Source of the DNA: a virus
Taxonomy: Duplodnaviria; Caudoviricetes
Virus record (IMG/VR): IMGVR_UViG_3300013121_000022
Location: 108,505 to 172,504 of that record
DNA: 64,000 bases
Direction: 5' to 3' (one strand)
Shown here: positions 6,505 through 62,490 of the stretch, one piece after another
How positions within the stretch are numbered: the first letter of the stretch is position 1
Layout: each line of letters begins with the position of its first letter
Program-made: the position numbers and the translations under genes
The notes under the pieces: generated by a model
Seen by the model: only the letters and a program-made list of their open reading frames with translations
The model's database searches: none
Told to the model about the DNA's origin: nothing

Positions 6505-6518
6505 GATCTGCGCCGATC
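6505..6518 (-). repeat. dispersed 14-bp motif GATCGGCGCAGATC
   Basis: perfect copy overlapping the -10/start of the tRNA-Lys promoter. Confidence 0.85.
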
Positions 6519-6649
6519 ATAACACATTGGTCGGTTAGTTGTCAATCAACAACTGGAGTGGAATACACTAACACAACGCCCAAAGTTGGTTGAACTTCTT
6601 TGCAATACACTGCCGAGATCGACAGTTACGATAAACAACACTTCCTGAT

Positions 6650-7129
6650 TCATGTTTCATCCTCCATTTCGATTTCACCACTTTCCAGTGTTGTAAATTT
6701 TACACCTTGCGCGTAATACTTTACAACTCCCGCATGGCGTTGTAGTTGAACCATGCCGCCATACTCTTTGTAATAGAATGCAACCAGTTCGGTTGCTAAC
6801 TGATTGTGTTCTTGGAATTTACATTCATAAAATTTTCCGTCCGGCATCATCCAACCATTAACTTCTTTTTTGAATGGTGTTGGCGTGGGCGGAAAATCAT
6901 TGTAAAACTGAACATACACCGACTCGTATTCATTATTGTACATTGTGTATGTATTAAGAACCTGCAAAGTCGCAGGTTTGATTGTGTAACTCGATCCAAC
7001 TCCCCAATACATTCGAGATGGAAACATGGACTTGAAATGAACCAAGTATGGGCCAACTTCACAAGGTGGACATTCTGGATTGGCGTATGTTTCGATAAAC
7101 TTCACAGCATAAATGGTTTCTGTTTTCAT
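6650..7129 (-). CDS. hypothetical protein (leaderless)
   Basis: TTGACA..TATGAT-N6-ATG on minus strand. Confidence 0.65.
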   Translation of the reverse strand: MKTETIYAVKFIETYANPECPPCEVGPYLVHFKSMFPSRMYWGVGSSYTIKPATLQVLNTYTMYNNEYESVYVQFYNDFPPTPTPFKKEVNGWMMPDGKFYECKFQEHNQLATELVAFYYKEYGGMVQLQRHAGVVKYYAQGVKFTTLESGEIEMEDET

Positions 7130-7204
7130 GCGGTTATCATAGATCAAAAAAGTATTTGTGTCAAGTGTTTGACAAACCCAAAAAATTCAAGTATCATTGC
7201 CGCC

Positions 7205-7513
7205 ATGAGACAAGTGAGCATCGTATTTATCAAGACGGGAGATCAAAACTCTGACATCCGCCGACTCAAATTGATTTTGGCACAGTCCAAAAAGGGGCAA
7301 GGCGCTGATGGACTGTCTATTGATTTTCGAGAATCGTTCAACGACACATCGGGTGTTGTGGTTGATTTTGAAAATGTTTCGATTGGTGTAGACACAATCG
7401 ATGTATGGCGCAAACGCGGATACTCGGTTTCAGAAGATCAGGTACAAGAAATTCAACCAGAAATATTGACGGACGCGAAACCTGAAACACGAATAGATTA
7501 TAATGATTTTTAG
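7205..7513 (+). CDS. hypothetical protein (leaderless)
   Basis: TTGACA-N17-TATCAT-N7-ATG. Confidence 0.6.
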   Translation: MRQVSIVFIKTGDQNSDIRRLKLILAQSKKGQGADGLSIDFRESFNDTSGVVVDFENVSIGVDTIDVWRKRGYSVSEDQVQEIQPEILTDAKPETRIDYNDF

Positions 7514-7517
7514 AAAT

Positions 7518-7590
7518 GCGCCTGTGGTGTAATGGTCAACATGACACTCTTATAAGGTGTGGATTGAAGGTTCGAGTCCTTTCGGGCGTA
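7518..7590 (+). tRNA. tRNA-Ile(TAT)
   Basis: anticodon arm ACACT-CTTATAA-GGTGT. Confidence 0.85.
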
Positions 7591-7594
7591 CAAT

Positions 7595-7666
7595 GGCGAG
7601 GTAGCTAAGCGGTTAAGGCAACTGTCTGCAAAACAGTGATGAAGGGTTCGACTCCCTTTCTCGCCT
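7595..7666 (+). tRNA. tRNA-Cys(GCA)
   Basis: loop CTGCAAA, U73 discriminator. Confidence 0.92.
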
Positions 7667-7668
7667 CT

Positions 7669-7740
7669 GCTTCCGTAGTTCAAAGGATAGAATACCAGTT
7701 TCCTAAACTGCCAATCTCGGTTCGAGTCCGAGCGGAAGCA
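7669..7740 (+). tRNA. tRNA-Arg(CCT)
   Basis: loop TTCCTAA. Confidence 0.9.
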
Positions 7741-7758
7741 CAAGAAAGAGAACTATTA

Positions 7759-8853
7759 ATGAAAATCAAAACCGATGTATTACTCTCCGCACTATCTGAT
7801 ACACTCAAAGCAACAAAAGAAAACGCAACAAACCCAACGCTGGCCTACATCAAAATAGAAAAAGACACAGACTCAAATCGCTGTTCGTTAGTTGGAACGA
7901 ACATGGAGTTTACCGTTGGCCGAACTATCGATGTTGAGGGAAATGAATCTGTTTCGCTGTTGATTGATGGCAGAAAAATTCACGACATCATTTCATCTGT
8001 GCCTGACGAGTACATCACCGTTACTATTCTATCTCAAAAAATTAAAGTGTCGAGTTCGATTAGCGAACTTACTCTATCAACTTTGGTTGCTGATGATTTT
8101 CCAAAAGTTGACAACGGTGGAGAACGTGCCGCACTGGTAAGCTCAGATTCTTTGGCGCTTTGGAGAGAGGCGATGTGGTGTACATCTTCTGATGTCCATG
8201 ATACCTTTAAGAATGGTGTCAACCTAACGTTTGATAAGTCGGGTAAATCCATTCATGTTGAAACAGGGAATGGATTTAGATGCTCTATTCTGAAATGTCC
8301 GGCGCAAGAGGTTTATGGCAACTTCAATGCTCTTGTTCCAGTAAACAACTTGATCAAAATGATGTCATTGGCAGTTGAAGACGTATTTGGCATTTTTGTC
8401 TCTAGCTCTTATATTGTCTTTCAATCCAAAAATGGTTTTACTCGATCTGCGCTGATCGAAGCAAAGTTTCCAGAATGGTTGTCAAAAATCAAAAAGACTA
8501 CTTTGGTCGGAATCAAAGTTGACCGAGATTCAACCCTGCAATCTCTCAAGTCGGCCTTGATTGTTGCTAAGGATTCAGCGAACAAGGTGATCTTGACGTG
8601 GGACAATACTCAAATTCATATTCACGCCGAATCGGAAACCGGAAACGTAGATTTGCATGTTCCGCACAAAGGCTTGATTGGAGATCAGAAAGTCTCTTTC
8701 AAGATTGGTTTTGACTGTATATCGTTGCGCGATGCGCTGACGTTCGGCGGAGATGTTACTATGTGGTTGACTTCTAGTGATCTGTATGCTCGTTTTAGTC
8801 GAGAAAAAGATGATTGGATTGGAGTAGTTATGCCACGAAAGGTGTCACAATGA
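7759..8853 (+). CDS. dnaN: DNA polymerase III beta sliding clamp
   Basis: 364 aa; PTLAYIKI, GTNMEF, DDFPKV, TGNGFR, LIEAKFP motifs. Confidence 0.85.
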   Translation: MKIKTDVLLSALSDTLKATKENATNPTLAYIKIEKDTDSNRCSLVGTNMEFTVGRTIDVEGNESVSLLIDGRKIHDIISSVPDEYITVTILSQKIKVSSSISELTLSTLVADDFPKVDNGGERAALVSSDSLALWREAMWCTSSDVHDTFKNGVNLTFDKSGKSIHVETGNGFRCSILKCPAQEVYGNFNALVPVNNLIKMMSLAVEDVFGIFVSSSYIVFQSKNGFTRSALIEAKFPEWLSKIKKTTLVGIKVDRDSTLQSLKSALIVAKDSANKVILTWDNTQIHIHAESETGNVDLHVPHKGLIGDQKVSFKIGFDCISLRDALTFGGDVTMWLTSSDLYARFSREKDDWIGVVMPRKVSQ

Positions 8854-9467
8854 ACAATACTACTTTGGTTGTTACTTTGCTGGATGAATCTGGATCGATG
8901 CTTGAACAAGACAAATCAGAAGTGGCAGTTCTAGCCTTCAATCAATTTGTCAAGGATCAAAACAATATTCCCGGATGCTATTTTTCGTTACATGTGTTTT
9001 CAGATCGCCAGAAGATCGCGGGTACTCCGCGCACCATTCCCCATCTTCGGACTATATTTGAAAATGTTCCGTCAAATATAGTCAAATTCACACGCGATCA
9101 GTATGATCCAGAGGGTTCTACTCCATTGTACGATGCGTTATCGGATTTGATTGATTTGATTGGTATGCGATTGTCTCTGTTGCCAGAATATGATCGTCCT
9201 TCTAAAGTTATTTTTGTGGTTATCACAGACGGTCAGGAAAATTCCAGTAAGCATACAAAGTATGCGGACTTGATGGAAAAAATTAAACATCAACAAGAAA
9301 AGTATTCTTGGGAGTTTGTTTTTGCGATGTCTGGTGTTACATATAACGAATTTCAAAGCGTCGCTAATTTCTCGACAACATTTTCTGCGTCTGACTCCAA
9401 AACGGTTGAAGCGAGTTATGCGAGTTCATCGCGATATGTCACCAGTTCAAGAACCGATAAACACTAA
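8850..9467 (+). CDS. von Willebrand factor A domain protein
   Basis: MIDAS DESGSM, TPLYDA, ITDGQENSS. Confidence 0.9.
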   Translation: MNNTTLVVTLLDESGSMLEQDKSEVAVLAFNQFVKDQNNIPGCYFSLHVFSDRQKIAGTPRTIPHLRTIFENVPSNIVKFTRDQYDPEGSTPLYDALSDLIDLIGMRLSLLPEYDRPSKVIFVVITDGQENSSKHTKYADLMEKIKHQQEKYSWEFVFAMSGVTYNEFQSVANFSTTFSASDSKTVEASYASSSRYVTSSRTDKH

Positions 9468-9468
9468 A

Positions 9469-10050
9469 ATGCGATCTCGGCGAATTGTTTTTACGTCCGA
9501 TCAACATTTCGGGCACGCGAATATCATCAAGTATCAACATCGTCCATATAAAAATGTGGACGAGATGGATTCTGCCTTAATTGAATCGTGGAACGCAAAA
9601 GTCGATCACGATGATATTGTGTTTCATCTTGGAGATTTTACACTTGGCGATGAACGACAGGCCGCAAGATATTTCTCTCGACTGAACGGGGCGATTGGCG
9701 TTGTACGCGGCTCGCACGATGACAGATGGTATAAAAATTCGGTTTACTATCGATCTCGATCTGGAATTCCAGTAAAGTTACTCGGAGATCGTTTCGACTA
9801 TTCATCTGCGATGATCGGTGAGGACGGGCGTAATCTGTTGATCGTGATGTCTCATTATGCAATGGCGCGATGGCCGATTTCGCATTATGGATCGCTACAT
9901 GTATTTGGACACTCACATGGAAACTTTGAAGGCATCGGAAAATCAGTTGATGTTGGGGTTGACGTTTATCCAAACCTATTGTATATTGAGGAAGTAGTCG
10001 AAATCTTGGCGAAAAAATCATCACCTGAGAACCATCTGAGAAAGAGTTGA
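9469..10050 (+). CDS. calcineurin-like metallophosphoesterase
   Basis: SDQHFGH, HLGDF, GSHD, GHSH. Confidence 0.9.
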   Translation: MRSRRIVFTSDQHFGHANIIKYQHRPYKNVDEMDSALIESWNAKVDHDDIVFHLGDFTLGDERQAARYFSRLNGAIGVVRGSHDDRWYKNSVYYRSRSGIPVKLLGDRFDYSSAMIGEDGRNLLIVMSHYAMARWPISHYGSLHVFGHSHGNFEGIGKSVDVGVDVYPNLLYIEEVVEILAKKSSPENHLRKS

Positions 10051-10052
10051 AA

Positions 10053-10622
10053 ATGGGACAGCGATATTACTTTCCGAACGTCAAAAACTGGCAAGATGCC
10101 TTGAATAGCTTGGATTTGGGGTTACAACATTTTGGGTTTACCATGAAGTTGTCCGGCGTCATGTTTCAGGGTATGGGCAAGACGGTTGTGCTTGTGTTGC
10201 CTTCCTCTGAACTTCCTCATGCCGCAGTTGAAGTTGTCGAACTTGATGCCGAGCAAGCGGCGGCATTGGTCAAGCAAACCGATCAACCCGAAGTGTTGGC
10301 TGGACACGATGGACAAGACAAGGTATGGGTTCGTAAACTTCAATATGAAGTGTCGGGTCATACACAACAACAAGTTTGGTGGGCGGATCACTTTACCTGC
10401 CAGTATTGTGGACGTGGATTGCCGGAAGTTCAGTTGACCATCGATCATTTTCATCCGCTGGACTTGGGCGGAGTAAACGATTCGAGCAACTATCTGACAG
10501 CTTGCAAGAAATGCAATAAGAATAAGGGCAATACGCCTGCTTTGAAGTGGTGCGCCGACAATCATCTGGATTACAATTTGCTGGTTGATTATTTGCGCCA
10601 GAGAAAATTAACTCGTAAGTGA
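10053..10622 (+). CDS. HNH endonuclease domain protein
   Basis: CQYCG..LTIDHFHP..GG..NYLTACKKCNKNKG. Confidence 0.85.
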   Translation: MGQRYYFPNVKNWQDALNSLDLGLQHFGFTMKLSGVMFQGMGKTVVLVLPSSELPHAAVEVVELDAEQAAALVKQTDQPEVLAGHDGQDKVWVRKLQYEVSGHTQQQVWWADHFTCQYCGRGLPEVQLTIDHFHPLDLGGVNDSSNYLTACKKCNKNKGNTPALKWCADNHLDYNLLVDYLRQRKLTRK

Positions 10623-10636
10623 TACAATAGCGAGAT

Positions 10637-10709
10637 GCCGCTATAGTTCAGTTGGCAGAACGTCATCTTGGTAAGATGAAGGTGGTGGGTTCGATCCCCA
10701 CTGGCGGCT
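10637..10709 (+). tRNA. tRNA-Thr(GGT)
   Basis: loop TTGGTAA. Confidence 0.92.
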
Positions 10710-10723
10710 CTTTGGAGTATCTA

Positions 10724-10936
10724 ATGGACGTTATCAATTTAGCAACCGGACAATGTGTAAGCTATAGTTTATCCGAAAAACAGGCTTTGATTGCGGCAGT
10801 TCAACAGTTTGATCGTAAAAACTGGCAGACTTGGAACTATCCAACTCCAGATCAAGTTGTATTTATTGAGGGACAACATACAATCGCATTGGGCGATTGG
10901 TGTGTACTCAAAACAGAAAGAGAGACAGCATGTTAG
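10724..10936 (+). CDS. hypothetical protein
   Basis: GGAG RBS after tRNA. Confidence 0.6.
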   Translation: MDVINLATGQCVSYSLSEKQALIAAVQQFDRKNWQTWNYPTPDQVVFIEGQHTIALGDWCVLKTERETAC

Positions 10937-11178
10937 TTTATCGAGTATCAGTCAAGGCAGTGGTCACAGAAGAAAACGAAAAGAATACCGATCAGGTCAA
11001 GATAAAATTTGTGGACATCGGCATTTACGATGTTCAGGCCAACGACTATAATGCGGCGGCTGAAAAAGCTTATGAGGTTGCGAAAGACAATCCAACTTAC
11101 AAAGAAATTACAGCTGACGTTGAAGTTGAAGTGGTCGCAACCAATATCAAACTTCTGTCAAAGCCAGATGAATTGTAG
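10930..11178 (+). CDS. hypothetical protein
   Basis: GAAAGAGA leader, coupled to previous ORF. Confidence 0.6.
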   Translation: MLVYRVSVKAVVTEENEKNTDQVKIKFVDIGIYDVQANDYNAAAEKAYEVAKDNPTYKEITADVEVEVVATNIKLLSKPDEL

Positions 11179-11307
11179 TTCTTGACAGATTGAATTTTTG
11201 AGATTAGAATGTAAATATCTTTGCTATCAACGTTTCTAGGTCATCAGGACTTAGCGCATAAACGAAACGGACGAGTGATAGTGAGCGTACTCACTCAAAA
11301 CTTGAAC

Positions 11308-11727
11308 ATGAAAAATAACTTGAAAACTCCATGCAGATACTGTCCGTTTAGATCGTCGTCTTTACCGAGATGGTTGGGCGGTATTGAACCCGAACAATTT
11401 ATCAATGATGCATTGAGCGAGTCTGGAAATGCATGTCACATTGATCTCGAACATCAACGTGAATTTTGGCAGAACGAGCAGGACAGTGGTCAACTTAACA
11501 ATGTGGATGACAGTATTATCGATGAGTTGATCGAATCTGATGTTGAACAATGCGCTGGAGCACTAGCTTTTGGTTCGATTATGGGCAAGGTATATCGAAA
11601 TAAAAACAAAGAAGCGCAACGCAGGATGGTCGGAAACGTTGACGGTATAATGAACTATAAAGAATTTTTAGTTCATCATGCCAGTACAGATAATTTCAGG
11701 CGCAAGTCTGATGGAAAAAGATTTTGA
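11308..11727 (+). CDS. Cys/His motif protein (DUF6283-like)
   Basis: PCRYCPFR..ACH..QCAGA. Confidence 0.55.
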   Translation: MKNNLKTPCRYCPFRSSSLPRWLGGIEPEQFINDALSESGNACHIDLEHQREFWQNEQDSGQLNNVDDSIIDELIESDVEQCAGALAFGSIMGKVYRNKNKEAQRRMVGNVDGIMNYKEFLVHHASTDNFRRKSDGKRF

Positions 11728-11760
11728 CAAAAACCATCCGTAAAATATTGCGATGGTTAT

Positions 11761-11847: not shown

Positions 11848-11925
11848 CAAAGGTGTTGACTAGATATATATAGTCGCCTTGCTGTTGAGGCCAGATTCCG
11901 AAAACACTGGAACAACAGTATACCC

Positions 11926-16652: not shown

Positions 16653-16681
16653 TTGACTTAGTTGCTGAACTAGGGTAATAT
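16653..16681 (+). promoter_or_regulatory. sigma70-type promoter of the RNase P RNA
   Basis: TTGACT-N17-TAATAT just upstream of the P1 helix. Confidence 0.75.
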
Positions 16682-16687
16682 CAACGT

Positions 16688-17070
16688 GATCGGCGCAGAT
16701 CAAGTTGTCGAGCTCGAAAGAGTTAGGAACTTCCCGACGATACAGGAGCAATCCTGAAAACCCTCCACATGAAAACAGCAAGTGTGGACAGTTCGACTGA
16801 ACTGATGTCAACGGCAACAGAGAACATTCCGCTCGAAAGAGTAACGGGTGAAAAGGACGGTGATACCCGTCCGGCATGTCAAGGTAACTTGCTTGCATAG
16901 GCGACAGGACAGGGGATCGCAAGGTGGCGCAAGATAGGCTACGGTTTATCTTGTAGAACCGCAGTATAAACGGTACGACAGAATAACACTCAGTCGCACT
17001 AGGATATACCATCAACCCGATGAGAAAGATGACAACCTAAACAGAATCGGGGGTATGATCGGCGCAGATT
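16688..17070 (+). ncRNA. rnpB: RNase P RNA (divergent, phage-encoded)
   Basis: P2 GTTGTC/GACAAC, P3 GAAA hairpin, P4 AGGAACTTCCCGA with ACAGAATCGGGGGTA, P5 CGAT/ATCG-CAAG, GCAACAGAGAA and GGGTGAAAAG joiners. Confidence 0.88.
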
Positions 17071-20384: not shown

Positions 20385-21110
20385 ATGGACAATCTAAAAG
20401 AGATTGGGCAAACATGGATTGTTGAATTTCCAAGAACAAAACATCTTCCATTTCGCCCTAACGCCACTCGTGATGACCTAATTGCTACCCAAGTTCAGGC
20501 AAGCATTATTTTTGATCCGGCAGTTGTCGTATCAACAACTGAAAAAGTAGACGGGGCACAATTGGGAGTTGGAATTGTTGATGGTAATCTTTGTATCCGC
20601 AACCGAAATCACGTGCTCAATAAAGGTTATCTCAGTCGCGGGGCGGCAGGCCGACAATTTGCGCCAACATGGACGTATTTTTACAAGCGAATTGAAGCAC
20701 TAAAGGCAATGGAAAAGTTCGCAGGTGAGCCTTTGGTAATTTACGGAGAGTGGTTGTATGCGGTTCATTCAATTGTTTATGACACTTTAACTGTTCCGTT
20801 TTTGAGTTATGATATTTATTTGCCGGAACAAAAGATATTTATTAAAGGTGCTCTGGCTAGATCGCTACTAGAAAACTTTGGATGGTCAGTTGTTGAACAA
20901 CTTGAAAACAAGGGATCGTATGAAGAATTGTCGAAGTTGTGTCACCAAAAATCGGCCTATGGATCGACTAAGCGAGAGGGTGTTTATCTGTCGGTCTGCG
21001 CCGATAAAAAATCAGTCACACATCGATTCAAAATGGTACGTTCAGATTTCATTACTGGTGAACACTGGTCTAAGCGATCTATTATCAAGCAACCTATGGT
21101 GAGGTTTTAA
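20385..21110 (+). CDS. RNA ligase family nucleotidyltransferase
   Basis: PRTKHLP, TEKVDG, YGEW, REGV, RFKMVR. Confidence 0.85.
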   Translation: MDNLKEIGQTWIVEFPRTKHLPFRPNATRDDLIATQVQASIIFDPAVVVSTTEKVDGAQLGVGIVDGNLCIRNRNHVLNKGYLSRGAAGRQFAPTWTYFYKRIEALKAMEKFAGEPLVIYGEWLYAVHSIVYDTLTVPFLSYDIYLPEQKIFIKGALARSLLENFGWSVVEQLENKGSYEELSKLCHQKSAYGSTKREGVYLSVCADKKSVTHRFKMVRSDFITGEHWSKRSIIKQPMVRF

Positions 21111-25758: not shown

Positions 25759-25890
25759 CGATCTGCGTGTTTTTGATAAGTTGAAATCGATGGAAGATAC
25801 AATACCCTGTCTCATCGGGCGAATCAAGAACCAACCAGAAACGGGATGCGATTTCAAGAGTAAAGGGATTTGAGAGATCGGCGCAGATCG
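25759..25890 (+). ncRNA. candidate rod-shaped RNA with internal bubble (6S-like shape)
   Basis: promoter TTGACA-N17-TATAAC; CGATCTGCGT/GCGCAGATCG and TTGAAATCG/CGATTTCAA helices. Confidence 0.5.
25876..25889 (+). repeat. GATCGGCGCAGATC motif
   Basis: perfect copy. Confidence 0.85.
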
Positions 25891-31264: not shown

Positions 31265-31756
31265 ATGAAAACTATCGCTGGAATTTTACAGTTGGCTTTG
31301 TGGGTGATTGGTCTGCCAAGTCTGATTGTTATCGGATTGATTGAGGCCGGACTTAAAATTACCACAAAGATCGTTACGTTGGTGTTATTGATTTTGTTTT
31401 TGTTTGTAACACCATTTGCGCTATTGTTTGCGGGAGTGGCAGGCATGACTCCGGCTGAAATGTGGAAAGTCTTGAAGGTAATTCTTCGGGCAAACTCGGC
31501 GCAGATCATTGGTCATAAGATTTACGAGATTGGCGCAGAACACGCCGAAGACTCCAGCAAGGATCACAAAACGGATGGGGTTGTAGTTGAAATTTTGGCA
31601 ACTCGACAGGATTTTGAAAACATTCGCGATCAGGCCAACGAACAATTGCTTTGGTTTTCCAACATGACGTTTCGTTCATTGGGAACGACTGAGAAATTCA
31701 TCTACAGCTTTTATCTGGTCAACCTGCAACTTGACAAGTGGAAGCGACGCAAGTAA
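31265..31756 (+). CDS. membrane protein
   Basis: GAAAGGA RBS, hydrophobic N-half. Confidence 0.6.
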   Translation: MKTIAGILQLALWVIGLPSLIVIGLIEAGLKITTKIVTLVLLILFLFVTPFALLFAGVAGMTPAEMWKVLKVILRANSAQIIGHKIYEIGAEHAEDSSKDHKTDGVVVEILATRQDFENIRDQANEQLLWFSNMTFRSLGTTEKFIYSFYLVNLQLDKWKRRK

Positions 31757-32895: not shown

Positions 32896-32909
32896 GATCG
32901 GCGCAGATC
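32896..32909 (+). repeat. GATCGGCGCAGATC motif
   Basis: perfect copy 19 nt upstream of tRNA-Asn. Confidence 0.85.
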
Positions 32910-33682: not shown

Positions 33683-33753
33683 GCATCTATGGCGTAACGG
33701 TAGCGCAGTAGCCTTTTAAGCTTTTGGTCAGGGTTCGACTCCCTGTAGATGCA
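33683..33753 (+). tRNA. tRNA-Lys(TTT), second copy
   Basis: loop CTTTTAA. Confidence 0.85.
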
Positions 33754-33756
33754 CAT

Positions 33757-33830
33757 GCGCTTGAAGCTGAGTCTGGAACAGCAAGAGACTCTTAATCTCA
33801 AGGAAGTGGGTTCGATGCCCATCAAGCGCA
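33757..33830 (+). tRNA. tRNA-Lys(CTT), second copy
   Basis: loop CTCTTAA. Confidence 0.88.
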
Positions 33831-34053
33831 CACACAACACGAGTTGTTGATCATCGTGCAAGGAACAGTAAGCATTGTGGATGGATGTATTACAGGTAGA
33901 TGGACATTTGCAAAGCGTGGTCAAAATTACGATGTCAAGTTAGTAAAACAATGTGTACTCAATCGGGTCTAGGCAATGTCTCAGATAGGAGCTCCACTTC
34001 ATTTGAGTAAGTCCGACAGTCGAAAGCGATCTAATAAGGCTGGAGCTGAAAAA

Positions 34054-34067
34054 GATCGGCGCAGATC
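34054..34067 (+). repeat. GATCGGCGCAGATC motif
   Basis: perfect copy in an ORF-free spacer. Confidence 0.85.
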
Positions 34068-34215
34068 AACTTTATCACACTACAGGAAGCGATTCCACCT
34101 AAGAAGCAATACGAGTTTGGTAGGCGACTGAATGGACTTGATTCGCGGCAAGGTCTAAACAGTGAACGTACAATGAACGAAAACATCAAACGCCTTGTGT
34201 GATAAAATCTCTGCA

Positions 34216-37823: not shown

Positions 37824-37930
37824 CAAGCACTCATTATCATGGGTGCTTTTTTTATTGATCGGCGCAGAGCGCGCCTTTAATATTGACACTTGAAATCAAC
37901 TAAGGGACAATTAAGAAAAGGAAAACATTC

Positions 37931-44856: not shown

Positions 44857-46854
44857 ATGACATACTATTCTATTTCGGGCATCCTCAAGATGTGGCGCGA
44901 TCTCGTTGAAGTGTATTCGCCGGACGACAATCTCAACAACTTTTTTAGTGAGTTGCGGGATTACGACAATCAAATCAGCCTTGCCTTAGAATTAGACGAT
45001 ACCAATCTTACGGCAATATTGATTCTGGACAATGTACTTAAGCAGTATCTTGAAAATAAAAGCATCAATCTAAGCGAAATCGCCGGATCGAGAAGTAATG
45101 TTCTGAAATTCTTGGTTGAATATCAGAACTTAAATGACGCTTTACACGCGCCAGAGATTGAATCTTTGGTCAAGGATTTTCAAGATGGTATTGCAACATC
45201 ACTAAATAACGTTCAATGTTTGACACCCTCTGTTGCTGAACTAATCAGCAATCGTTTCATGTTGGCCGAAATACGCTTGGCCGCACTGAAATCAAACCGC
45301 GATCTCAAGGTATTCAAGTTTTCATCCGGCAACAACGACGCCACTGACTTTGTGTTTTTCAAAGAAGTGCGCCAATACTTTGATGTCAATATTTTGTTGC
45401 AACTCGCCGCAAATCCGCATTTTCCAAATAGCATTAGTCTTCACTTGATTCGAGATGTTGTCAATGAAGAATTCTCGTATTTTGTCTTTTTGATAAAGAA
45501 CGGTGACAATGTTTATTTGGTTGCCGACAACCCCGATTTACCTTCACCTGACTACAAGAACAGAGGCCGATCTCGATCTATTTCGCGCAAGTTTAGTGCT
45601 CGAATCGACGCTCATTATTTTCCGTATAGTTTTATGAACGTTGAGTTCAACAAAAAAACAGCTCTGTACGAAATCAAAAATTTTTACTCAACCGATCTCG
45701 TGCCTGCCGATCAATCGAATATCGTTGGTCGCTTAAATGAAATGGATGCCGAAAGCATTGTGTGGGTGTATATGTTGTTTTGGTTATTTAAGCAAAAGTT
45801 CTTTGCCGATGAACCGATTCAACTTGAGCAATCCTATACAGGTGCGATGATTAGGACTGGAATTGAGTCTCCGAAAGTTTCAAACGCCATTATCAAGGCG
45901 TATCCAGCATTAAATGTTCAATCACTAACAACATCCTTGTTGACTAATTCAAATCCAGAGATTGTCAAACAGTGGAAATATGAACCTACGCATCAAAATC
46001 AATGGATGGAAGATCGCTATGCTGATAAAATCAAAAACACAGATCGGATATTGAATTACGTTGAAGTTCCGGCCTTGCCAGACGACTATAACGTTAAGAC
46101 CGGAAACATAATTCAACATCACAAAAAAGATACTGACAGTTTTTTTGGTCAAGATAAACTAGAGGTTGCAATTCCGCTCAGAGGCGTATCTGTTACCGAT
46201 ATGGGATCGGCGCAAACTTTGGAGCAAAACAGAATATTTTTTGCCCGTCTTTCTCAAGCTCGATCAATTCAGGTTTTGGCACAACAAGAGTTCAACGCAA
46301 CTCGTAAATCTGTTTTTGCATGGTATTTTTCACAAGTTGTACAAAACATCTCAGAACTTAAACGCGCCATTGCGACTGAAACGTTTATGTGTAATGTCTC
46401 AGTGCATAATTCTTATTCTCCAGATCGTCCTAGCATGGCGGATTCGTTTGACAGTCACATGGAATTGAGAAACATTTTTGTTCTTTTGCCGATTGAAAAA
46501 AGGCGGGGATGGTACGATGACGAGCAGGTGGTGTTGTTAGGTGGCGGAGATAGATTTAGACAATGCTACTTCACTAATGGTCAGGCGTCGTATGTCGCTA
46601 AATTCTATGTACGCGACAGCGATTCAATCGCCAGAGTGTGTAATTTATCGGTATCTGATTTACCTGATGTATTACAACACGTTCGGGGTGTTGATCGCTA
46701 TATTGGAAATTCAATACTGTCTCGTATCGATCCATTGGATAATTTGAAAAATCCCTGGAACAAACTTGACTATAGCATTGAAATTGCATTATCCAAGCGA
46801 GCTCTGAATGCCATTCGCAAAGAATACGGGATCAAGAAAGAAAATCAGTCATGA
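44857..46854 (+). CDS. large hypothetical protein (leaderless)
   Basis: 665 aa; TTGACA/TATAAT-N6-ATG. Confidence 0.75.
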   Translation: MTYYSISGILKMWRDLVEVYSPDDNLNNFFSELRDYDNQISLALELDDTNLTAILILDNVLKQYLENKSINLSEIAGSRSNVLKFLVEYQNLNDALHAPEIESLVKDFQDGIATSLNNVQCLTPSVAELISNRFMLAEIRLAALKSNRDLKVFKFSSGNNDATDFVFFKEVRQYFDVNILLQLAANPHFPNSISLHLIRDVVNEEFSYFVFLIKNGDNVYLVADNPDLPSPDYKNRGRSRSISRKFSARIDAHYFPYSFMNVEFNKKTALYEIKNFYSTDLVPADQSNIVGRLNEMDAESIVWVYMLFWLFKQKFFADEPIQLEQSYTGAMIRTGIESPKVSNAIIKAYPALNVQSLTTSLLTNSNPEIVKQWKYEPTHQNQWMEDRYADKIKNTDRILNYVEVPALPDDYNVKTGNIIQHHKKDTDSFFGQDKLEVAIPLRGVSVTDMGSAQTLEQNRIFFARLSQARSIQVLAQQEFNATRKSVFAWYFSQVVQNISELKRAIATETFMCNVSVHNSYSPDRPSMADSFDSHMELRNIFVLLPIEKRRGWYDDEQVVLLGGGDRFRQCYFTNGQASYVAKFYVRDSDSIARVCNLSVSDLPDVLQHVRGVDRYIGNSILSRIDPLDNLKNPWNKLDYSIEIALSKRALNAIRKEYGIKKENQS

Positions 46855-51925: not shown

Positions 51926-52455
51926 GAAAAATCGTCATTGTCAATAAAACACAATGGTCAACCCGCGATCTGCGCCGATTCGTCAATCGGGCGTGTCATG
52001 AGGTTCTGCTAGATCATGAAGTTCCGGTTGTGCATTGCACGTTCAAGACTGGTCGTGCCGCCTTAATTGGTGGTTGTTCGGGTTGGGCGATACTACATGG
52101 ATCGACTATGCAGGTCTGTGTTGGCAAGCAAGTTATCGATAAAATCGATCTTGCATTTGTAATTGGTCATGAGCTCGGACATCTCAAGGGTCTCAATCAT
52201 GCTCAGATGCGTGGTTCGTGTCGCTGGCGGAGAGATCGCGAAAACAAACATCGCGAGATATACAGTTGGGGTGATTCTCTGCCGCTCGCCAAGCAGGTTG
52301 TAAAAGAACACATTAGACCATCTGCCGTTGACAAGGCCGAACATTGCCAGACAATGATCAAGCAGTGGAAATCGAAAGTCAAACGCGCCAACACTGCCCT
52401 AAAGAAGTGGGAACGCAAACTGAAATACTATCAAAAGAAAGAAGATGTCGCATGA
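51922..52455 (+). CDS. zincin-like metallopeptidase domain protein
   Basis: HELGHLKGLNH. Confidence 0.7.
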   Translation: MRKIVIVNKTQWSTRDLRRFVNRACHEVLLDHEVPVVHCTFKTGRAALIGGCSGWAILHGSTMQVCVGKQVIDKIDLAFVIGHELGHLKGLNHAQMRGSCRWRRDRENKHREIYSWGDSLPLAKQVVKEHIRPSAVDKAEHCQTMIKQWKSKVKRANTALKKWERKLKYYQKKEDVA

Positions 52456-56380: not shown

Positions 56381-56947
56381 ATGAAACCTATTGTAATGAG
56401 TTCCGCAAGCGTGGTTAGTTTGAAACACAAACGAAAAACCATTACGCATCGAATTCTAAAAGAAAAGTTGTATCCCAATGTAGTCAAGATTGAGTACAAG
56501 ACAACAATCGCCGGAAAGCATTATTGGTGGGGAACGTCCGACGCAGAATCAGACATTTCGCAGTCGATTGTGTGTCCATATAGCGTGGGAGATCAATTAG
56601 CGGTTCAGGAGTTGTGGGCGCTAAATGGCGGACGCTATGTGTATGCCGCCGATAATCGATCCGAAAGCGGATCGTGGCAACCTGCTCATATTATGCCGAT
56701 TGAGGCATGTCGCTTTTTCTTGGAAATCACTGGCCTAGATTGTGAGATGATAAAATTTATCAGTCAAAGTCAAGCAATGGCGGAAGGCTTGTGGAAAAGC
56801 AAAACACATGGTTGGATGCCCGGTGGATATGATGAATGGAAAGCGGCTTATATTCATCAATGGAAAGAAACCAATCCAAACCACAAATTCAGCGATACAT
56901 GGGTTTGGCGAATTGTCTTCAAGCAAAAGGATCATGATTCATGGTAA
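56381..56947 (+). CDS. phage ASCH/PUA-like protein
   Basis: CPYSVGDQLAVQE..MPIEACRFFLEIT..AMAEG..WVWRIVF. Confidence 0.7.
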   Translation: MKPIVMSSASVVSLKHKRKTITHRILKEKLYPNVVKIEYKTTIAGKHYWWGTSDAESDISQSIVCPYSVGDQLAVQELWALNGGRYVYAADNRSESGSWQPAHIMPIEACRFFLEITGLDCEMIKFISQSQAMAEGLWKSKTHGWMPGGYDEWKAAYIHQWKETNPNHKFSDTWVWRIVFKQKDHDSW

Positions 56948-57207
56948 AACGACATGTGGCTGTAGCGCATACGATCCATCGATATATCAGCTGGATCGAA
57001 AAACAACCTGAGAAATATAACGTTGTCCGCCGACAGTTAGGGCATCACTGGCAAGCCTTTCATAAAATCAACATCAAGAAAGAAGTCCGACGCACTTTTG
57101 TCGAGACGATCAACACCCCTGAAAGCTTTTATGAATTTTTAGAGTTTTGCTTTATATCTTCACCCTCAGACTACGAATATCTTAAGGCAAAAATCAGGCG
57201 TTCGTGA
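56941..57207 (+). CDS. hypothetical protein
   Basis: coupled ORF. Confidence 0.5.
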   Translation: MVKRHVAVAHTIHRYISWIEKQPEKYNVVRRQLGHHWQAFHKINIKKEVRRTFVETINTPESFYEFLEFCFISSPSDYEYLKAKIRRS

Positions 57208-57237
57208 TAGAATCTTCGTAATCACAGGAGGTTCGCT

Positions 57238-57570
57238 ATGAACTTTATTATCGAAAATTTCGACAAGCTGTTAGGCGTTGCCGCGCTGATTGCGGTCATC
57301 ATCAATATCTTTAAGTATTTTGGATTGGTGAAAGATGGACAGTCAGGAGTCTGGAACACTGCCTTGAGTTTGATTGCCGCCGCAGTTATCTTTTATGTTC
57401 GGCAACAGTTTCCGGCCTATGCCGAAAATTTGGATACTCAGGCTGGACAAATTGCCGCAGTGCTGACCGCAGTGCTGACATTTTTGGTTCAGTTTGGTGG
57501 TGCATTGGCAACCCACAAGCTGGCAACCGCTGGCAAGATGTCATTTATTGGCAAATCCCTTAGCAACTAA
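57238..57570 (+). CDS. holin-like 3-TM membrane protein
   Basis: AGGAGG RBS, three TM, basic C-term, followed by terminator. Confidence 0.55.
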   Translation: MNFIIENFDKLLGVAALIAVIINIFKYFGLVKDGQSGVWNTALSLIAAAVIFYVRQQFPAYAENLDTQAGQIAAVLTAVLTFLVQFGGALATHKLATAGKMSFIGKSLSN

Positions 57571-57582
57571 ATACGTTTCACT

Positions 57583-57612
57583 AAAAAGGACTCCATTAGC
57601 GAGTCCTTTTTT
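57583..57612 (+). terminator. intrinsic terminator
   Basis: AAAAAGGACTC..GAGTCCTTTTTT. Confidence 0.8.
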
Positions 57613-57653
57613 AGTTATTGACTGTCAATCAAAAATCAGGTAAGATGTCTGGC

Positions 57654-58022
57654 ATGACAAAATTATCATTTTGGAAACAAGAAAAGAGCGACTGCTTTAT
57701 TGATCTCAAAAACCACTTTGATGGGAAAAATTCGCGCATCAAATTCATAGAAATGAACGGATGGGGACAGATCGATACACTCCGAGTTGTGTTTGATGTA
57801 TATGGATTTCGGGTTAGTGGCTGGTTCATCCTTGATAAAAAAATCTTGCAAGTTGAACACATTTCGATAGATGAGGATGTGGCTACAGCCGAAGATTTCG
57901 GCGGACTTCTTTCAGTTTTGACTGGAACTTATACCGCAAAGGCGGTTTGGAACGATAACGGATTGTATTCTCTCGAAAGGATTGAAATAGCTGATGGAGA
58001 ATCAAAGCATACCGAATTTTGA
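57654..58022 (+). CDS. hypothetical protein
   Basis: TTGACT/TAAGAT promoter. Confidence 0.6.
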   Translation: MTKLSFWKQEKSDCFIDLKNHFDGKNSRIKFIEMNGWGQIDTLRVVFDVYGFRVSGWFILDKKILQVEHISIDEDVATAEDFGGLLSVLTGTYTAKAVWNDNGLYSLERIEIADGESKHTEF

Positions 58023-58034
58023 TCTGCGCCGATC
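58021..58034 (-). repeat. GATCGGCGCAGATC motif
   Basis: perfect copy, reverse orientation. Confidence 0.85.
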
Positions 58035-58130
58035 CAAGATCAAGTTATACTGGATCGTAATTTTTTCAAGCGTATTTGTGGTGGCAGGCACATTTCTGGC
58101 GTTTCTGTTTCTAACATCTCAGGTTTAATT

Positions 58131-58697
58131 ATGTGGAATTTTATACTCGATAATACGCCTTGTCGGTGTGGTGATGTAATTGTTCCGGCAGGCGTCAAAA
58201 GTTATATGTTTGAAGGACGTATTCACGAACGGCAAGATTCTGGCTTGATGTGTGAGGCTCGTAAATCTAAAGCCGAACAAGAGTTGATAGAAGAAAATCA
58301 ACTTTTGAGTCGGTTATTGCATTTCAATAAACGAGTCTTCGATTTAGCGTCCACTAAAACGCCGTTTGTCGTGGTCGCTCAGGATGAACCTTATTTTCGT
58401 GAAGTTTATAATCTGATTCGATCTCATGAACAATCGTTGGGACGTTGGGACGCTAAGGACGAAGAACTTTTTTGTGCATTGACTGAACCCGACCTGGTAA
58501 ACTTGGTCGAAGAACAAAAAATTTATCACGATAACTTTGTGATCGCCTGCAAGTATTGTGAACAAAGTGTGTCCACCAATGCCGATCCGAGTGAGTGGAA
58601 GATCAAACACAAACCTGATTGCCGCTGGCTATTGGCCGAACAACGACTTGAGAGAATTGAGAGAAAATATGTCCACCCCACACTTATCACCCCTTGA
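58131..58697 (+). CDS. hypothetical protein
   Basis: CKYC..HKPDC. Confidence 0.6.
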   Translation: MWNFILDNTPCRCGDVIVPAGVKSYMFEGRIHERQDSGLMCEARKSKAEQELIEENQLLSRLLHFNKRVFDLASTKTPFVVVAQDEPYFREVYNLIRSHEQSLGRWDAKDEELFCALTEPDLVNLVEEQKIYHDNFVIACKYCEQSVSTNADPSEWKIKHKPDCRWLLAEQRLERIERKYVHPTLITP

Positions 58698-58935
58698 CGT
58701 TTCTTTTGTTTTCGAAAACGGCGACACAACCGCCCAAGATACCATCAACGATCTCCGCAACAAAATCCGGCAGGCATGGCAACCCACCGATCATGTGATG
58801 CCGCCCACGACTGAAACCGATCCAAAGGTATGGGCAGACGCTTTTCAGAAGTGTTATCCCAATGCCAACGTTCCGTTTGAAGTAGCTGAACGCTGGTTTC
58901 GCAGATCGCTTCAATCTGGACGATTATATGGATAA
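58669..58935 (+). CDS. hypothetical protein
   Basis: coupled ORF. Confidence 0.5.
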   Translation: MSTPHLSPLDVSFVFENGDTTAQDTINDLRNKIRQAWQPTDHVMPPTTETDPKVWADAFQKCYPNANVPFEVAERWFRRSLQSGRLYG

Positions 58936-59152
58936 TCCAACGACCTTCAAGGTAGGCGACATAGTCAAGGCCACTCATTTCATTCGTCGGGTAGATGGAC
59001 GCTACGCTCTGTATTCTGGCGATCTGGCGACCATTATCCGAATTTATCAAGACGATCCCGACGTATCTTTTGGGCAGGGTTGTATGAACGATATTGTCTG
59101 CTATCAGGAAGGCCATTTGTTTTGGCGAACTTGTTATGAAACAAATCACTAA
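58928..59152 (+). CDS. hypothetical protein
   Basis: FKVGDIV motif. Confidence 0.5.
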   Translation: MDNPTTFKVGDIVKATHFIRRVDGRYALYSGDLATIIRIYQDDPDVSFGQGCMNDIVCYQEGHLFWRTCYETNH

Positions 59153-59444
59153 ATTTGTATGTGACCTTTGTGCCACTGAATATAACAGCGCCGAAAAAGC
59201 TTTGGCTTGCGAAAATCTGCCTACCGATACCCCGTCGCGTCAGGTCGAAGATTTAGTCGTCTCGCCGGACGGAGTGGTTGGAGTTGTGCTGGAAATTCAA
59301 TACAAAGTCGATTATGGTCTTGTGCGATTGGGAATTACGTCTAGGTCGCAGGTGGTTGTGCGTGAATATCCTGTGTACACCAAGACATATCCCGCACAGG
59401 GCGTCTGCACACTCGCTTATATTCAAGAGGCATTACAGAAATGA
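59136..59444 (+). CDS. hypothetical protein
   Basis: CDLC..ACE motif. Confidence 0.55.
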   Translation: MKQITKFVCDLCATEYNSAEKALACENLPTDTPSRQVEDLVVSPDGVVGVVLEIQYKVDYGLVRLGITSRSQVVVREYPVYTKTYPAQGVCTLAYIQEALQK

Positions 59445-59752
59445 TCTACATCTTAGTTCCGCCCACGAACAAGGTAAAAATTCAACTTCTGCACATTCAC
59501 AAGTTGTCAGTAAACGGACAGCACATTACATTTTGCGGCAGACGATTTGATGAAGATCGTTTTCAGCCGACGACTGAAAAACCTAGCATGGCCGGAACTC
59601 GATCCTGCAATCATTGCGCCGAATCTTACGAGCATCACACGCGGGTTGTTGGCGCAATTCAACCCGAAGACGATCTCATTCCGGGCGACAGCGGTACAGT
59701 TAAACGAATGCCGCCCAATTCAGGTTGGGCAGAAACGGAGCAAACAACGTGA
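59441..59752 (+). CDS. hypothetical protein
   Basis: GAGG RBS, coupled. Confidence 0.5.
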   Translation: MIYILVPPTNKVKIQLLHIHKLSVNGQHITFCGRRFDEDRFQPTTEKPSMAGTRSCNHCAESYEHHTRVVGAIQPEDDLIPGDSGTVKRMPPNSGWAETEQTT

Positions 59753-59953
59753 GTAATTTAATGTGGATTTTTTGTAAAAAAGGTGAAATCATTGTCGGTT
59801 GGCTAGAATCAATTGGCAGGTTATCCGTAAAAGCATGGGAAGCAATCGTGCGTCTTTATTGGCGTGTGGTTGCGCCCAACAAAGCGTACAGTCGACGTGG
59901 CGCAAAGGTCGTCAAATCCAAATCAAAGGTTCGCGTTGGTCGCACACGTGGTT

Positions 59954-60080
59954 AACCGTTGGGCGGATAATTGCTGAGGCTCTCTGTTAAAAACCAGAGT
60001 GCCGCATGATGAAACTCTGCGGCGGCAATGTCCACAAAGCGTCATGTCGGGAAGCCTCCGAAACAGACCGCCCAAAGGTT
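59954..60080 (+). ncRNA. candidate pseudoknotted RNA or leader
   Basis: TTGGGCGG/CCGCCCAA closing; ATTGCTG/CGGCAAT crossed by GAGGCT/AGCCTC. Confidence 0.5.
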
Positions 60081-60122
60081 ACGGTTAGCCCGCACGCGGC
60101 TCACGCAAGTCCGTTGGTAAAC

Positions 60123-60365
60123 ATGATCAAGTTACAGATTGAATACAACGAAAGCGATCCAAGTTTTGTGATCGAATACCAGAATCGAGTCAATCAACTT
60201 TCGGCTGTGATAATTGAAATGATGGAAAAAAATCCCGCATTGATATTGTCGCCTGTCTTTCGCGAGTTGATGGTTGAGAAAGCTAAAGAACTCGACAAGT
60301 ACAACGCAAAGGTCTATGGTAAATTACACGTAGATAATTCCTTTGCGCCGCTCAAGGTGGACTGA
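60123..60365 (+). CDS. hypothetical protein
   Basis: 80-aa ORF. Confidence 0.55.
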   Translation: MIKLQIEYNESDPSFVIEYQNRVNQLSAVIIEMMEKNPALILSPVFRELMVEKAKELDKYNAKVYGKLHVDNSFAPLKVD

Positions 60366-60691
60366 TGCAAAAGATACTTGGCAAGAAACTGTCAGGCAAA
60401 ACCAAAGAACTCATCAAGATTAGCGCTAAAACTGGTTTCTATATTGTCACCAAAGATCAGAGTAACGCCAAAAATATAGTGTACACCGCTAAAACAATGG
60501 GCCTGAAAATCCATGAACCCATTACCTTTTATGAATTTATGTATCGTCAATACGGACGCAAGGTAGATGGAGTGCTGATTGACAACGCAGATTTATTGCT
60601 GGCGTTTTACATAGCCGATTTAAATGTTCGAGTTCACGCTGTAACCATGACGTGGGACGAGATTGACGATAAAATACTCCCTACCCCTTAA
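60365..60691 (+). CDS. hypothetical protein (P-loop-like start)
   Basis: GKKLSGKTK..VLIDNAD. Confidence 0.6.
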   Translation: MQKILGKKLSGKTKELIKISAKTGFYIVTKDQSNAKNIVYTAKTMGLKIHEPITFYEFMYRQYGRKVDGVLIDNADLLLAFYIADLNVRVHAVTMTWDEIDDKILPTP

Positions 60692-60718
60692 TTAAAAATT
60701 TTTTGAAGGAATCCCGAA

Positions 60719-61006
60719 ATGAGCCGAGAAGAACTTGAACACCTGTTTAAAAAACACCACGACAAATTTTTGAACTTCCACGATGTAGTCAATCCCCGTT
60801 CACGACGCCCCGATCTTAACGCCTTCCTGTTGTTGGATTCGCTTCTGCCAAATGGCAGAGATATTATCGGCGGAGCAGATCATGATGTTGTGTATTTGAG
60901 CATCAATCCCGCTAGACTGGCCGAAGTGGTATCCGAAGATCAAGTCATTGAACTCATCCGCTGTGGCGTCCGTCTCGAACCAAATGGCCTTGAAATGTTC
61001 GCTTGA
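60719..61006 (+). CDS. conserved phage hypothetical protein
   Basis: SRRPDLNAFLLLD..ELIRCGV; AAGGA RBS. Confidence 0.65.
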   Translation: MSREELEHLFKKHHDKFLNFHDVVNPRSRRPDLNAFLLLDSLLPNGRDIIGGADHDVVYLSINPARLAEVVSEDQVIELIRCGVRLEPNGLEMFA

Positions 61007-61335
61007 TCTAAAATAAGGGGTAGGGTTAATTAAATTTTTTTGTGAAGGGTATTGGGGCATCCCCGCCCCGTTGACCATAATGGCCGAGAGGGGGAGGGGG
61101 TGTCCTCTGAGATCGTGATGACTGAATCATATAACGAATAAGACCAGCTCCATACCCACACCCCCATGCCCCTGCGCCCTTGTTTATACAATGCGCCTCC
61201 CCTGTATAGACAAGCGAGAATACGATTAGATATATATCTAATTGTTTGTGTGCGTGTATATACAAGCACACATACACCACGCGCCTGTTTTATAATGCGC
61301 TTGACATGTTTATATATATGTGCTACATTATAACC

Positions 61336-62490
61336 ATGACCTACAAATTGACAGCCCACACCCTGAGTATTCTTCAAGATCAATTGTCCAAGCTCCAGAA
61401 GACAGCTCGCAAGATTGGTCAGGTCGCTCCTGCCCTCACTGTGGAAGGTACGGAAGATATAACCCATGAGGATGGATCGGTTACACGCTATACGCTGGTA
61501 TCTATCACTGGCGATGCTCCCCGCATCAATGGATGGGTATTTGTGGGCAAAATAGAATGGGTCGAAGGACAACCCTTGATTTCGGTGGGCTTGACCGGAG
61601 AAAACATTCCCGCGTCATTTCGGCAGGCTGTGCCCGTATGTGATCATTGTCAGGTGCGCCGCAATCGCAATGCTATCTTTATTCTGCGCTCAGAAGCAGG
61701 CGATCAATGGAAGCAGGTAGGCCGCACGTGCTTGAAGGACTTTACCGGACACGCCGATCCCAATGCTATTGCTTCTTATGCGGAATCGCTTAACGACTTT
61801 ATTGCCGACATTGCTCAGGCCGAATATGAAGATCATGGTTATCGCTCAGGCCGCAAGCCGGAATTGATCAACACACGCCGCTTTGTTGCCTGTGTTATTT
61901 CGGCTGTGCGTTCGGATGGATACTTTGTCACTCGGAAGCAGGCCGAAGAAAAGAACACACTCTCAACCAGTGATCGCGTAATTTCGGCTATGTTCCCGCC
62001 GATCTCCAGTCAAGAAAAACCACTTGTTCCCACACAGGCCGATTTGGACGAAGCAGATAAGATCATTTCGTGGGCAAATCAAATCGACGCCAACACGACA
62101 AACGACTATCTCTACAATCTGCGCGTAATGGCCGGAGCAAGCGCCTTTGATCTGCGCCGATCCGGTTTGGTCGCTTCAATGGTCGTGGCTTATCGTCGCG
62201 AGAAAGATCAACTCAACACAAAATCGGCCAAGCCCGTTAGTCAACACGTTGGAAAGATTGGCGACAAAATTTCGGAAACCCTGACCGTCAAGAACTCAGT
62301 CGAGTGCAACAATCAATATTCGTCCATTCTTTACACGTTTGAAGATCAAGCCGGAAACGTCTATATCTGGTTCGCTTCTCATGCCGTAGCCGAAGTCGGC
62401 CAGACTTATACCGTTACCGGAACGATCAAAGATCATACCGAATTTCGCAACGTCAAGCAAACCGTTCTTACTCGGTGCAAGGTCAACTAA
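61336..62490 (+). CDS. phage protein with CxxC and C-terminal OB-like domain (leaderless)
   Basis: CDHC..VGRTCLKDF; GTIKDHTEFRNVKQTVLTR; TTGACA/TACATT-N6-ATG. Confidence 0.75.
   Translation: MTYKLTAHTLSILQDQLSKLQKTARKIGQVAPALTVEGTEDITHEDGSVTRYTLVSITGDAPRINGWVFVGKIEWVEGQPLISVGLTGENIPASFRQAVPVCDHCQVRRNRNAIFILRSEAGDQWKQVGRTCLKDFTGHADPNAIASYAESLNDFIADIAQAEYEDHGYRSGRKPELINTRRFVACVISAVRSDGYFVTRKQAEEKNTLSTSDRVISAMFPPISSQEKPLVPTQADLDEADKIISWANQIDANTTNDYLYNLRVMAGASAFDLRRSGLVASMVVAYRREKDQLNTKSAKPVSQHVGKIGDKISETLTVKNSVECNNQYSSILYTFEDQAGNVYIWFASHAVAEVGQTYTVTGTIKDHTEFRNVKQTVLTRCKVN
62149..62162 (-). repeat. GATCGGCGCAGATC motif inside a CDS
   Basis: perfect copy encoding DLRRS. Confidence 0.8.

Follow-up and report, generated by a model that had tools for sequence, protein, structure and literature searches.

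What does a phage gain from carrying the same near-palindromic 14-bp word at 22 places around its genome? We address this question for the word GATCGGCGCAGATC in a tailed virus (Caudoviricetes) represented by the IMG/VR record IMGVR_UViG_3300013121_000022. The window, meaning the whole 64-kb stretch of DNA that was analysed, comprises positions 108,505–172,504, the last 64 kb of this 172,504-bp record, and coordinates below are window positions unless marked as genome positions. Because the ends of the record share a 141-bp overlap, the assembly is circular. A first-pass annotation of the window had described the word as a protein-binding, recombination or processing signal, resembling parS, Chi, HIP1 or uptake sequences, that had been recruited into RNA structure. 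Our analysis supports a selected and polar signal that is likely read by a protein, whereas recruitment into RNA structure as a general property, and the HIP1, parS and Chi readings, are not upheld.

Exact copies of the word number 22 in the whole 172.5-kb genome, 11 on each strand, with seven in the window, making it by far the commonest 14-mer of the genome. The reversed control pattern has no copy in the whole genome, and 100 dinucleotide shuffles gave no match to the word. The number of copies expected on both strands is 0.0007–0.007 for Markov orders 0–4 and 0.055 for order 5; at higher orders the expectation is inflated by the word copies themselves. With fewer than 0.06 copies expected through the fifth-order background, the earlier statement that such a word should occur far less than once by chance is confirmed. 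Genome-wide, the word is found at 22, 7, 11 and 18 places with 0, 1, 2 and 3 mismatches, respectively. All seven perfect copies first reported in the window were recovered at the same positions and on the same strands, as were the one-mismatch copies at 17057 (+), 37857 (+) and 51967 (−). Three further copies had been overlooked: one with a single mismatch, at 8444 (−), and two with two mismatches each, at 20993 (−) and 31528 (+). Of the copies that the annotation had called partial, that at 31494 has two mismatches, but those at 46205 (three mismatches) and 36270 (four mismatches, with just the 10-nt 3′ part in common) are weak.

The word is a selected, polar signal at the level of DNA. When the copies are aligned, information content falls to background directly beyond the 14 positions, with no flanking homology. 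The word occurs in all three reading frames, sense and antisense, where it is read as DLRRS, ICAD, SAQI, IGAD, SAPI or DRRRS, and at least 9 of the 22 perfect copies are antisense to local transcription. Using a simple open reading frame (ORF) call, at least 8 of the 22 perfect copies lie outside ORFs, compared with ∼11% of non-ORF DNA in the genome. One copy fills the 19-nt gap between two genes, and three overlap a TGA stop codon through their first GA. Within the phrog_2319 protein the word lies over a variable loop beside an invariant glycine, with no indel relative to 15 homologues. In a conserved glycosyltransferase it covers the sole variable patch of the region, again with no indel in the alignment; Ile-Gly-Ala codons already found in a close homologue, together with synonymous choices and a single tolerated replacement, account for its sequence. 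These two protein alignments led us to reject an origin of the copies by insertion, and an origin at recombination junctions was rejected because no internal duplication terminates at a word copy. Given the absence of indels and flanking homology, and their position away from duplication ends, the copies arose in place, many times, by selected point changes.

The symmetry of the word is nearly complete. It has the form GATC-K-GCGC-M-GATC, in which six of the seven position pairs are complementary (chance 0.0015). Among the 16 possible forms GATC-N-GCGC-N-GATC (GATCNGCGCNGATC), the one with G..A at positions 5/10 accounts for all 22 perfect copies (11 + 11), and the sole other form present is A..A, which is that of two near-copies whose position 5 is A. 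None of the four symmetric forms occurs in the genome. This pattern coincides with extreme genome-wide avoidance of 6-bp palindromes, with 19 hexamers at zero and about ten more at 1–5 copies. Hexamers at zero include TGCGCA (58 expected), GGCGCC (42), CGCGCG (13) and CGATCG (137), and AGATCT, GGATCC, CCATGG, GGWCC, GGYRCC and RGATCY are likewise missing from the genome; GATC and GCGC themselves are not avoided. The symmetric forms nearest to the word, T..A and G..C, would hold TGCGCA or GGCGCC, the C..G form holds the excluded CGCGCG, and the A..T form holds AGCGCT, which is depleted (8 copies). The flanks of the perfect copies show the same constraint: C never precedes the word, because C plus the word makes the excluded CGATCG, and a purine always follows it, because a following pyrimidine makes the excluded RGATCY. 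From these sequence patterns we infer an underlying site that would have dyad symmetry and be bound by a dimer, its symmetric versions having been censored by restriction pressure from the host. Exclusion of these hexamers would thus fix the site in a permitted, slightly asymmetric form, and its one asymmetric pair gives the word a direction. Such extreme avoidance of palindromes hints at one host, or a range of hosts, with an abundance of type II restriction systems; many of the sites avoided here are probably targets of cyanobacterial enzymes.

The direction of the word is not randomly distributed. Within the window, the first-pass annotation had noted plus orientation from 16.7 to 46 kb and reversal at 6.5 kb and past 51.9 kb, a pattern that is borne out and extends genome-wide. 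Six orientation domains follow one another around the circle (genome coordinates): minus from 160.5 kb across the contig join to 17 kb, plus from 26.8 to ∼60 kb, minus from 65 to 70 kb, plus from 76 to 103.5 kb, minus from 115 to 117 kb, and plus from 125 to 146 kb. Orientation switches 6 times among 29 copies and 8 times among 39, and label permutation gave P values of 0.02 for 22 copies, 0.001 for 29 and 2e-4 for 39. Gaps at the switches average 8.4 kb, compared with 3.4 kb elsewhere (P = 4e-4), and spacing is more even than chance (coefficient of variation 0.68 vs 0.95 for random placement, P = 0.017). Minus-to-plus boundaries fall near genome positions 22, 73 and 121 kb, the latter two beside helicase and beta-clamp genes, and the other domain boundaries near 61, 109 and 153 kb; clear origin features were absent from the two domain-boundary regions inspected. 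Across most of the genome, word orientation matches transcription. The exception is the 29-kb arc from genome position 160471 to 16952, where most of the 11 copies oppose long plus-strand ORFs and near-consensus promoters, and two of the 11 precede small minus-strand ORFs. The orientation domains do not simply follow transcription or skew.

Our leading, still tentative, reading of these sequence patterns is that the word would be recognised on duplex DNA by a dimeric protein, probably one that the phage itself encodes. The site would be private to this phage, and selection would maintain it at about one copy per 6–8 kb. A role in DNA metabolism or genome organisation is inferred, with one in transcription initiation or RNA folding less likely. 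Such a site could serve to mark phage DNA, to direct nicking or relaxation to one strand, or in recombination or fork handling. Since roughly a fifth of the copies lie at +1 to +15 of a sigma-70-like promoter, the same dimeric protein may also serve as an operator there. The window carries 46 transfer RNA (tRNA) genes and a transfer-messenger RNA gene, together with recA, a beta-clamp gene and two HNH endonuclease genes, and the remainder of the genome encodes the portal protein, a UvrD-like helicase, an SNF2 helicase, a PD-(D/E)XK nuclease, RtcB, a ParB_N-N6/N4 methylase fusion, other methylases, a type IB topoisomerase (TopIB), a PARP with regulatory domain and a TET-associated glycosyltransferase; ligase-like genes are also present. 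Among these genes is a short list of candidate readers. A bolder reading, to which we assign a low probability, is that the word would be a self-mark with direction, at which a phage enzyme (candidates being TopIB, an HNH endonuclease or the ParB_N-methylase) acts on one strand per copy, with the domains as replication or recombination units. If true, it would be the first instance of programmed strand-specific marks that occupy both strands of a phage genome and are grouped into domains, their sequence having been shaped by the restriction repertoire of the host.

Several observations weigh against a dimer-read site. Orientation domains would not be expected from a purely symmetric dimer alone, and third-position GC and AT skew are alike in co-oriented and anti-oriented domains, so that nothing independent ties orientation to replication. 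The A..T form is possible, its AGCGCT being just partly avoided, yet it is unused, and position 5 is A in two near-copies; together these suggest that recognition may itself be somewhat asymmetric, and some intrinsic asymmetry is likely. No reader protein was identified for the word, and no relative carrying it was found.

One use of the word as RNA is well supported. The copies at 16688 and 17057 had been proposed to form helix P1 of an RNase P RNA, and an RNase P class A-like RNA is indeed found at 16688–17070 (+), closed by the two copies through 14 pairs that include two G-A mismatches and one G-U. The Rfam class A model aligns over positions 1–367 of this RNA with 58.9 bits (E = 3e-17), which falls short of the gathering score (100), and both the minimum free energy and the centroid folds pair the two copies (fold z −4.8). 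A reversed copy at the 3′ end would make a perfect 14-bp helix and still be a perfect word; P1 nevertheless keeps a direct copy with two G-A mismatches, matching the local plus domain. The use in P1 would be a secondary accommodation of a nearly self-complementary word. The RNase P-like RNA has its own promoter (16653–17070 including the RNA) and stands by the 46-tRNA array. Other proposed RNAs are not supported: the stretch behind the copy at 25876, which had been thought to close another RNA, is no more stably folded than its shuffles (z +1.0) and overlaps a 128-aa ORF, and the copy lacks a sequence to pair with; a spacer RNA at 33835–34080 is also no better than shuffles (z 0.0). Apart from the RNase P pair, pairing-capable sequences near the copies, with G-U allowed, are at genome background. 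A nearly self-complementary DNA word can thus pass for an RNA motif.

Among the alternatives to a dimer-read site, the one we take most seriously, though we consider it unlikely, is that the copies are programmed single-strand interruptions like those of T5, tf and phiKMV-like phages, where a nickase or TopIB would cut one strand per copy. Such nick sites are short, exact, lineage-private and strand-specific words in coding and non-coding DNA (PMC3517423), and the word here is likewise exact, private and present in both kinds of DNA. Its centre agrees with R/GCGCRGG, the major-nick consensus of T5, in 7 of 8 positions (a post hoc comparison; chance 0.008), and the genome's two HNH endonucleases, TopIB, PARP with regulatory domain and ligase-like genes would fit such a system, which predicts virion nicks in the top strand of plus domains and the bottom strand of minus domains. 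However, nick sites occupy one strand in all described cases, whereas the copies here are split 11/11 and keep to a single strand only within domains, and a strand-specific enzyme leaves the near-palindromy unexplained. Rather less probable is a set of operators resembling the 13-bp oriented stoperators of Cluster A mycobacteriophages (PMC9283540), with a regulator repressing six promoters that have the word at +1 to +15 and an orientation-dependent elongation block elsewhere. Six copies do lie 0–10 nt past a −10 element, all of them sense-oriented, against a background of ∼1% of positions. Short spacers are preferred, and most copies outside the 160–17 kb arc point with transcription. Orientation is not always with transcription, however, since most of the 11 copies in the arc run against plus-strand genes with confirmed strong promoters, and about half of all copies lie deep within coding sequence. 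Stoperators are also asymmetric and bound by a monomer, unlike the near-palindromic word. The genome has no match to integrase or resolvase families, which makes an immunity system, with the repressor of a temperate phage, unlikely; no search aimed at a repressor was made.

We regard as improbable a private Chi-like signal, by which an end-degrading helicase-nuclease of the phage or host would be tamed from one side, so that phage RecA is loaded and the DNA protected. Polarity in domains and even spacing agree with this, as do the phage's RecA, UvrD-like helicase and PD-(D/E)XK nuclease, but known Chi sites are asymmetric words of 5–8 nt, whereas the word has 14 bp with six of seven pairs symmetric; the helicase and nuclease genes are separate and unlinked, and nothing independent of the word points to a replication direction that would fit the domains. 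The comparison with parS fails on distribution, as few sites clustered near an origin would be expected and the 22 copies are spread genome-wide, more evenly than chance; such a system would also comprise a ParB with an HTH domain and a ParA partner, and the sole ParB-type match among the ORFs scanned, which did not include all small ones, is the ParB_N domain fused to the N6/N4 methylase. HIP1 (octamer GCGATCGC) is impossible in this genome, as its core CGATCG has 0 copies against 137 expected, and this also counts against the broader idea of a host-shared word, whether uptake-sequence-like or HIP-like, or of a neutral copying product, which we rate as highly improbable. DNA uptake sequences number in the hundreds to thousands in a host genome. 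Other IMG/VR contigs with the word, including five whole records, have one copy each, and the copies here arose in place, without indels or flanking homology and off duplication junctions. Least credible of all is an RNA-level signal, i.e. a processing site or helix module common to many phage RNAs: P1 is made by two copies and several others lie in 5′ leaders, but the antisense copies, the background level of pairing partners and the two unsupported RNAs speak against it. Separately, a TET-type hypermodification target was considered and rejected, as no TET/JBP or C5 methylase gene was found in the genome.

The individual copies in the window illustrate the range of contexts, which, as the annotation had stated, spans promoters, spacers and coding sequence. 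Four lie close to promoters. The perfect copy at 6505–6518 (−) comes right after a TTGACA-17-TGTTAT promoter (6519–6547, minus) and 3 nt ahead of tRNA-Lys(ctt), and that at 16688–16701 (+), the 5′ strand of P1, begins 6 nt past a TTGACT-17-TAATAT promoter (16653–16681). The 3′ strand of P1 is the one-mismatch copy at 17057–17070 (+), whose last base is T and which has a TTGACA-17-CATAAT promoter 5 nt downstream. The one-mismatch copy at 37857–37870 (+) is placed between a terminator and the recA promoter, with the −35 element beginning 12 nt past the copy. Two perfect copies are in spacers, one at 32896–32909 (+), 18 nt upstream of tRNA-Asn, and one at 34054–34067 (+), 222 nt downstream of tRNA-Lys(ctt).

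Copies in or at genes include the one-mismatch copy (A at position 5) at 8444–8457 (−), antisense within the beta-clamp gene, the perfect copy at 25876–25889 (+) over codons 3–7 of the 128-aa TTG-start ORF, and two-mismatch copies in coding sequence at 31494–31507 and 31528–31541 (both +). The perfect copy at 58021–58034 (−) overlaps the TGA stop of the plus-strand ORF 57618–58022, and the perfect copy at 62149–62162 (−) is antisense over the variable loop of the phrog_2319 protein, read as DLRRS. The two-mismatch copy at 20993–21006 (−) is the sole reversed copy within the 16.7–37.9 kb plus domain, and the one-mismatch copy at 51967–51980 (−) opens the minus domain that reaches across the contig join to genome position 16952.

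Some neighbouring features were also recorded. The minus-strand copy at 6505 belongs to a reversed cassette (5810–6547) inside a plus-strand region, consisting of promoter, word, tRNA-Lys(ctt), tRNA-Lys(ttt) and an HNH endonuclease ORF; a second Lys tRNA pair is found on the plus strand at 33683–33831. Where a block of plus-strand genes ends, at genome positions 56856–56960, a weak promoter-like site, a one-mismatch word copy and a strong terminator hairpin come in succession within ∼100 nt; this could be a short RNA beginning with the word or just the 3′ end of the last gene. A 28-nt inverted repeat (L126:16340–16429; 93% complementary, 34-nt loop), with a word copy 300 nt leftward, sits in a 536-bp divergent spacer between minus-strand replication-type genes and the SNF2 helicase gene. 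The TopIB gene (L123:16880–18028, plus strand) encodes a Topoisom_I core and a bacterial TopIB N-terminal domain, contains a word copy within its N-terminal extension, and belongs to a family listed as of unknown function in PHROGs. Large proteins with a RelA/SpoT domain and a zeta-toxin domain are encoded at L123:12674–14701 and L123:15378–16226. The PARP gene (L126:1062–2315, minus strand) has catalytic (E = 3e-34) and PARP regulatory (E = 6e-7) domains. The TET-associated glycosyltransferase (L127:1015–1866, plus strand) is set in a block of methylase, epimerase and glycosyltransferase genes and shares 75–81% identity with thousands of metagenomic proteins, a conservation far above that of the rest of the genome.

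Searches for relatives returned only distant ones. Neither other viral records nor contigs that share homologous genes carry the word as a repeat, a comparison that did not extend to the host, and an exact-word scan of IMG/VR gave single chance copies only. A portal search yielded one 12-kb contig with 58% identity and 63% GC, which does not carry the word. This contig (L129), the only portal relative found, has a 13-mer of its own in three copies (5517–5529, 5721–5733 and 10082–10094), all in one frame and encoding xAPKN; unlike the word, this repeat is a peptide-level one. JGI metagenomes scanned with the ParB-methylase gave no close match, a gene that bears the word has its best homologue at 38% identity, megablast against cultured phages gave no match, and the exact word had no match in the literature searched. 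RecA is 52–60% identical to RecA of many phyla and gives no host signal, and the epimerase look-up returned mixed taxa.

How the word compares with known systems depends on which of its properties is considered. In bacteria, the NBS sites of Noc, SBS of SlmA, matS of MatP and parS of ParB are dyad sites of 12–16 bp that occur tens of times, within genes as well as in spacers, and are bound by dimers to mark parts of replicons; they are degenerate and unoriented. The genome yielded no full homologue of ParB, Noc, SlmA or MatP, only the ParB_N-methylase fusion. The best cultured portal match, Streptomyces phage Tomas, is a distant relative (25% identity) with an iterated word of its own: the spacers of its early left arm (L214:793–10816) contain 14 copies of a 13-bp dyad word (ACCGGGCCGGT core), all in one orientation and each beside a hairpin. 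The same arm also has two genes with ParB-like nuclease domains. By analogy, iterated dyad words may be common in the broad group of Tomas and this phage, each with its own sequence.

Cluster A stoperators resemble the word in length (13–14 bp), in number (>20 copies), in their placement at promoters and in short spacers, and in that orientation matters, but they are asymmetric, their binding protein is a monomeric immunity repressor, and they always run with transcription (PMC9283540). The word, by comparison, is near-palindromic, lies in genes in half of its copies, runs mostly against transcription over a 29-kb arc and occurs in a phage with no integrase. The nick sites of T5, tf and phiKMV-like phages are, like the word, exact and lineage-private (9–19 nt there), strand-specific and located in coding and non-coding DNA, though confined to a single strand in every described case (PMC3517423); the GCGC core of the word is similar to the T5 consensus.

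By analogy of arrangement, the word comes nearest, among described cases, to TGTTCGG-N3-CCGAACA, an invariant 17-bp dyad repeat of Cluster O mycobacteriophages. It is present in >30 copies per genome, of which ∼40% occupy short spacers and the others coding sequence, and only a few are near promoters (PMC4351075). That repeat, whose function is unknown, is absent from the host and from other phages, the phages look lytic, and its authors inferred a dimeric DNA-binding protein with a role other than transcription initiation (PMC4351075). Both systems have invariant arms (here the GATC and GC arms in 22 of 22 copies) and tens of copies in spacers and genes, mostly off promoters, and both phages encode a beta clamp, a ParB-like domain protein and glycosyltransferases. 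The Cluster O phages share no sequence or phage relationship with this one, and their repeat has no meaningful orientation, whereas here copies form orientation domains, the symmetric form appears censored by restriction-site avoidance and one copy pair doubles as an RNA helix. We class the word with the phage-wide iterated protein sites, as a variant of its own, rather than with Chi, parS, HIP1 or uptake sequences. To the known iterated words, i.e. stoperators, Cluster O dyad repeats and nick sites, whose function is mostly open, it adds an orientation-domain map that predicts where something changes along the genome, a set of candidate readers encoded in that same genome, and an apparent case of restriction avoidance deciding in which form a binding site is open to a phage.

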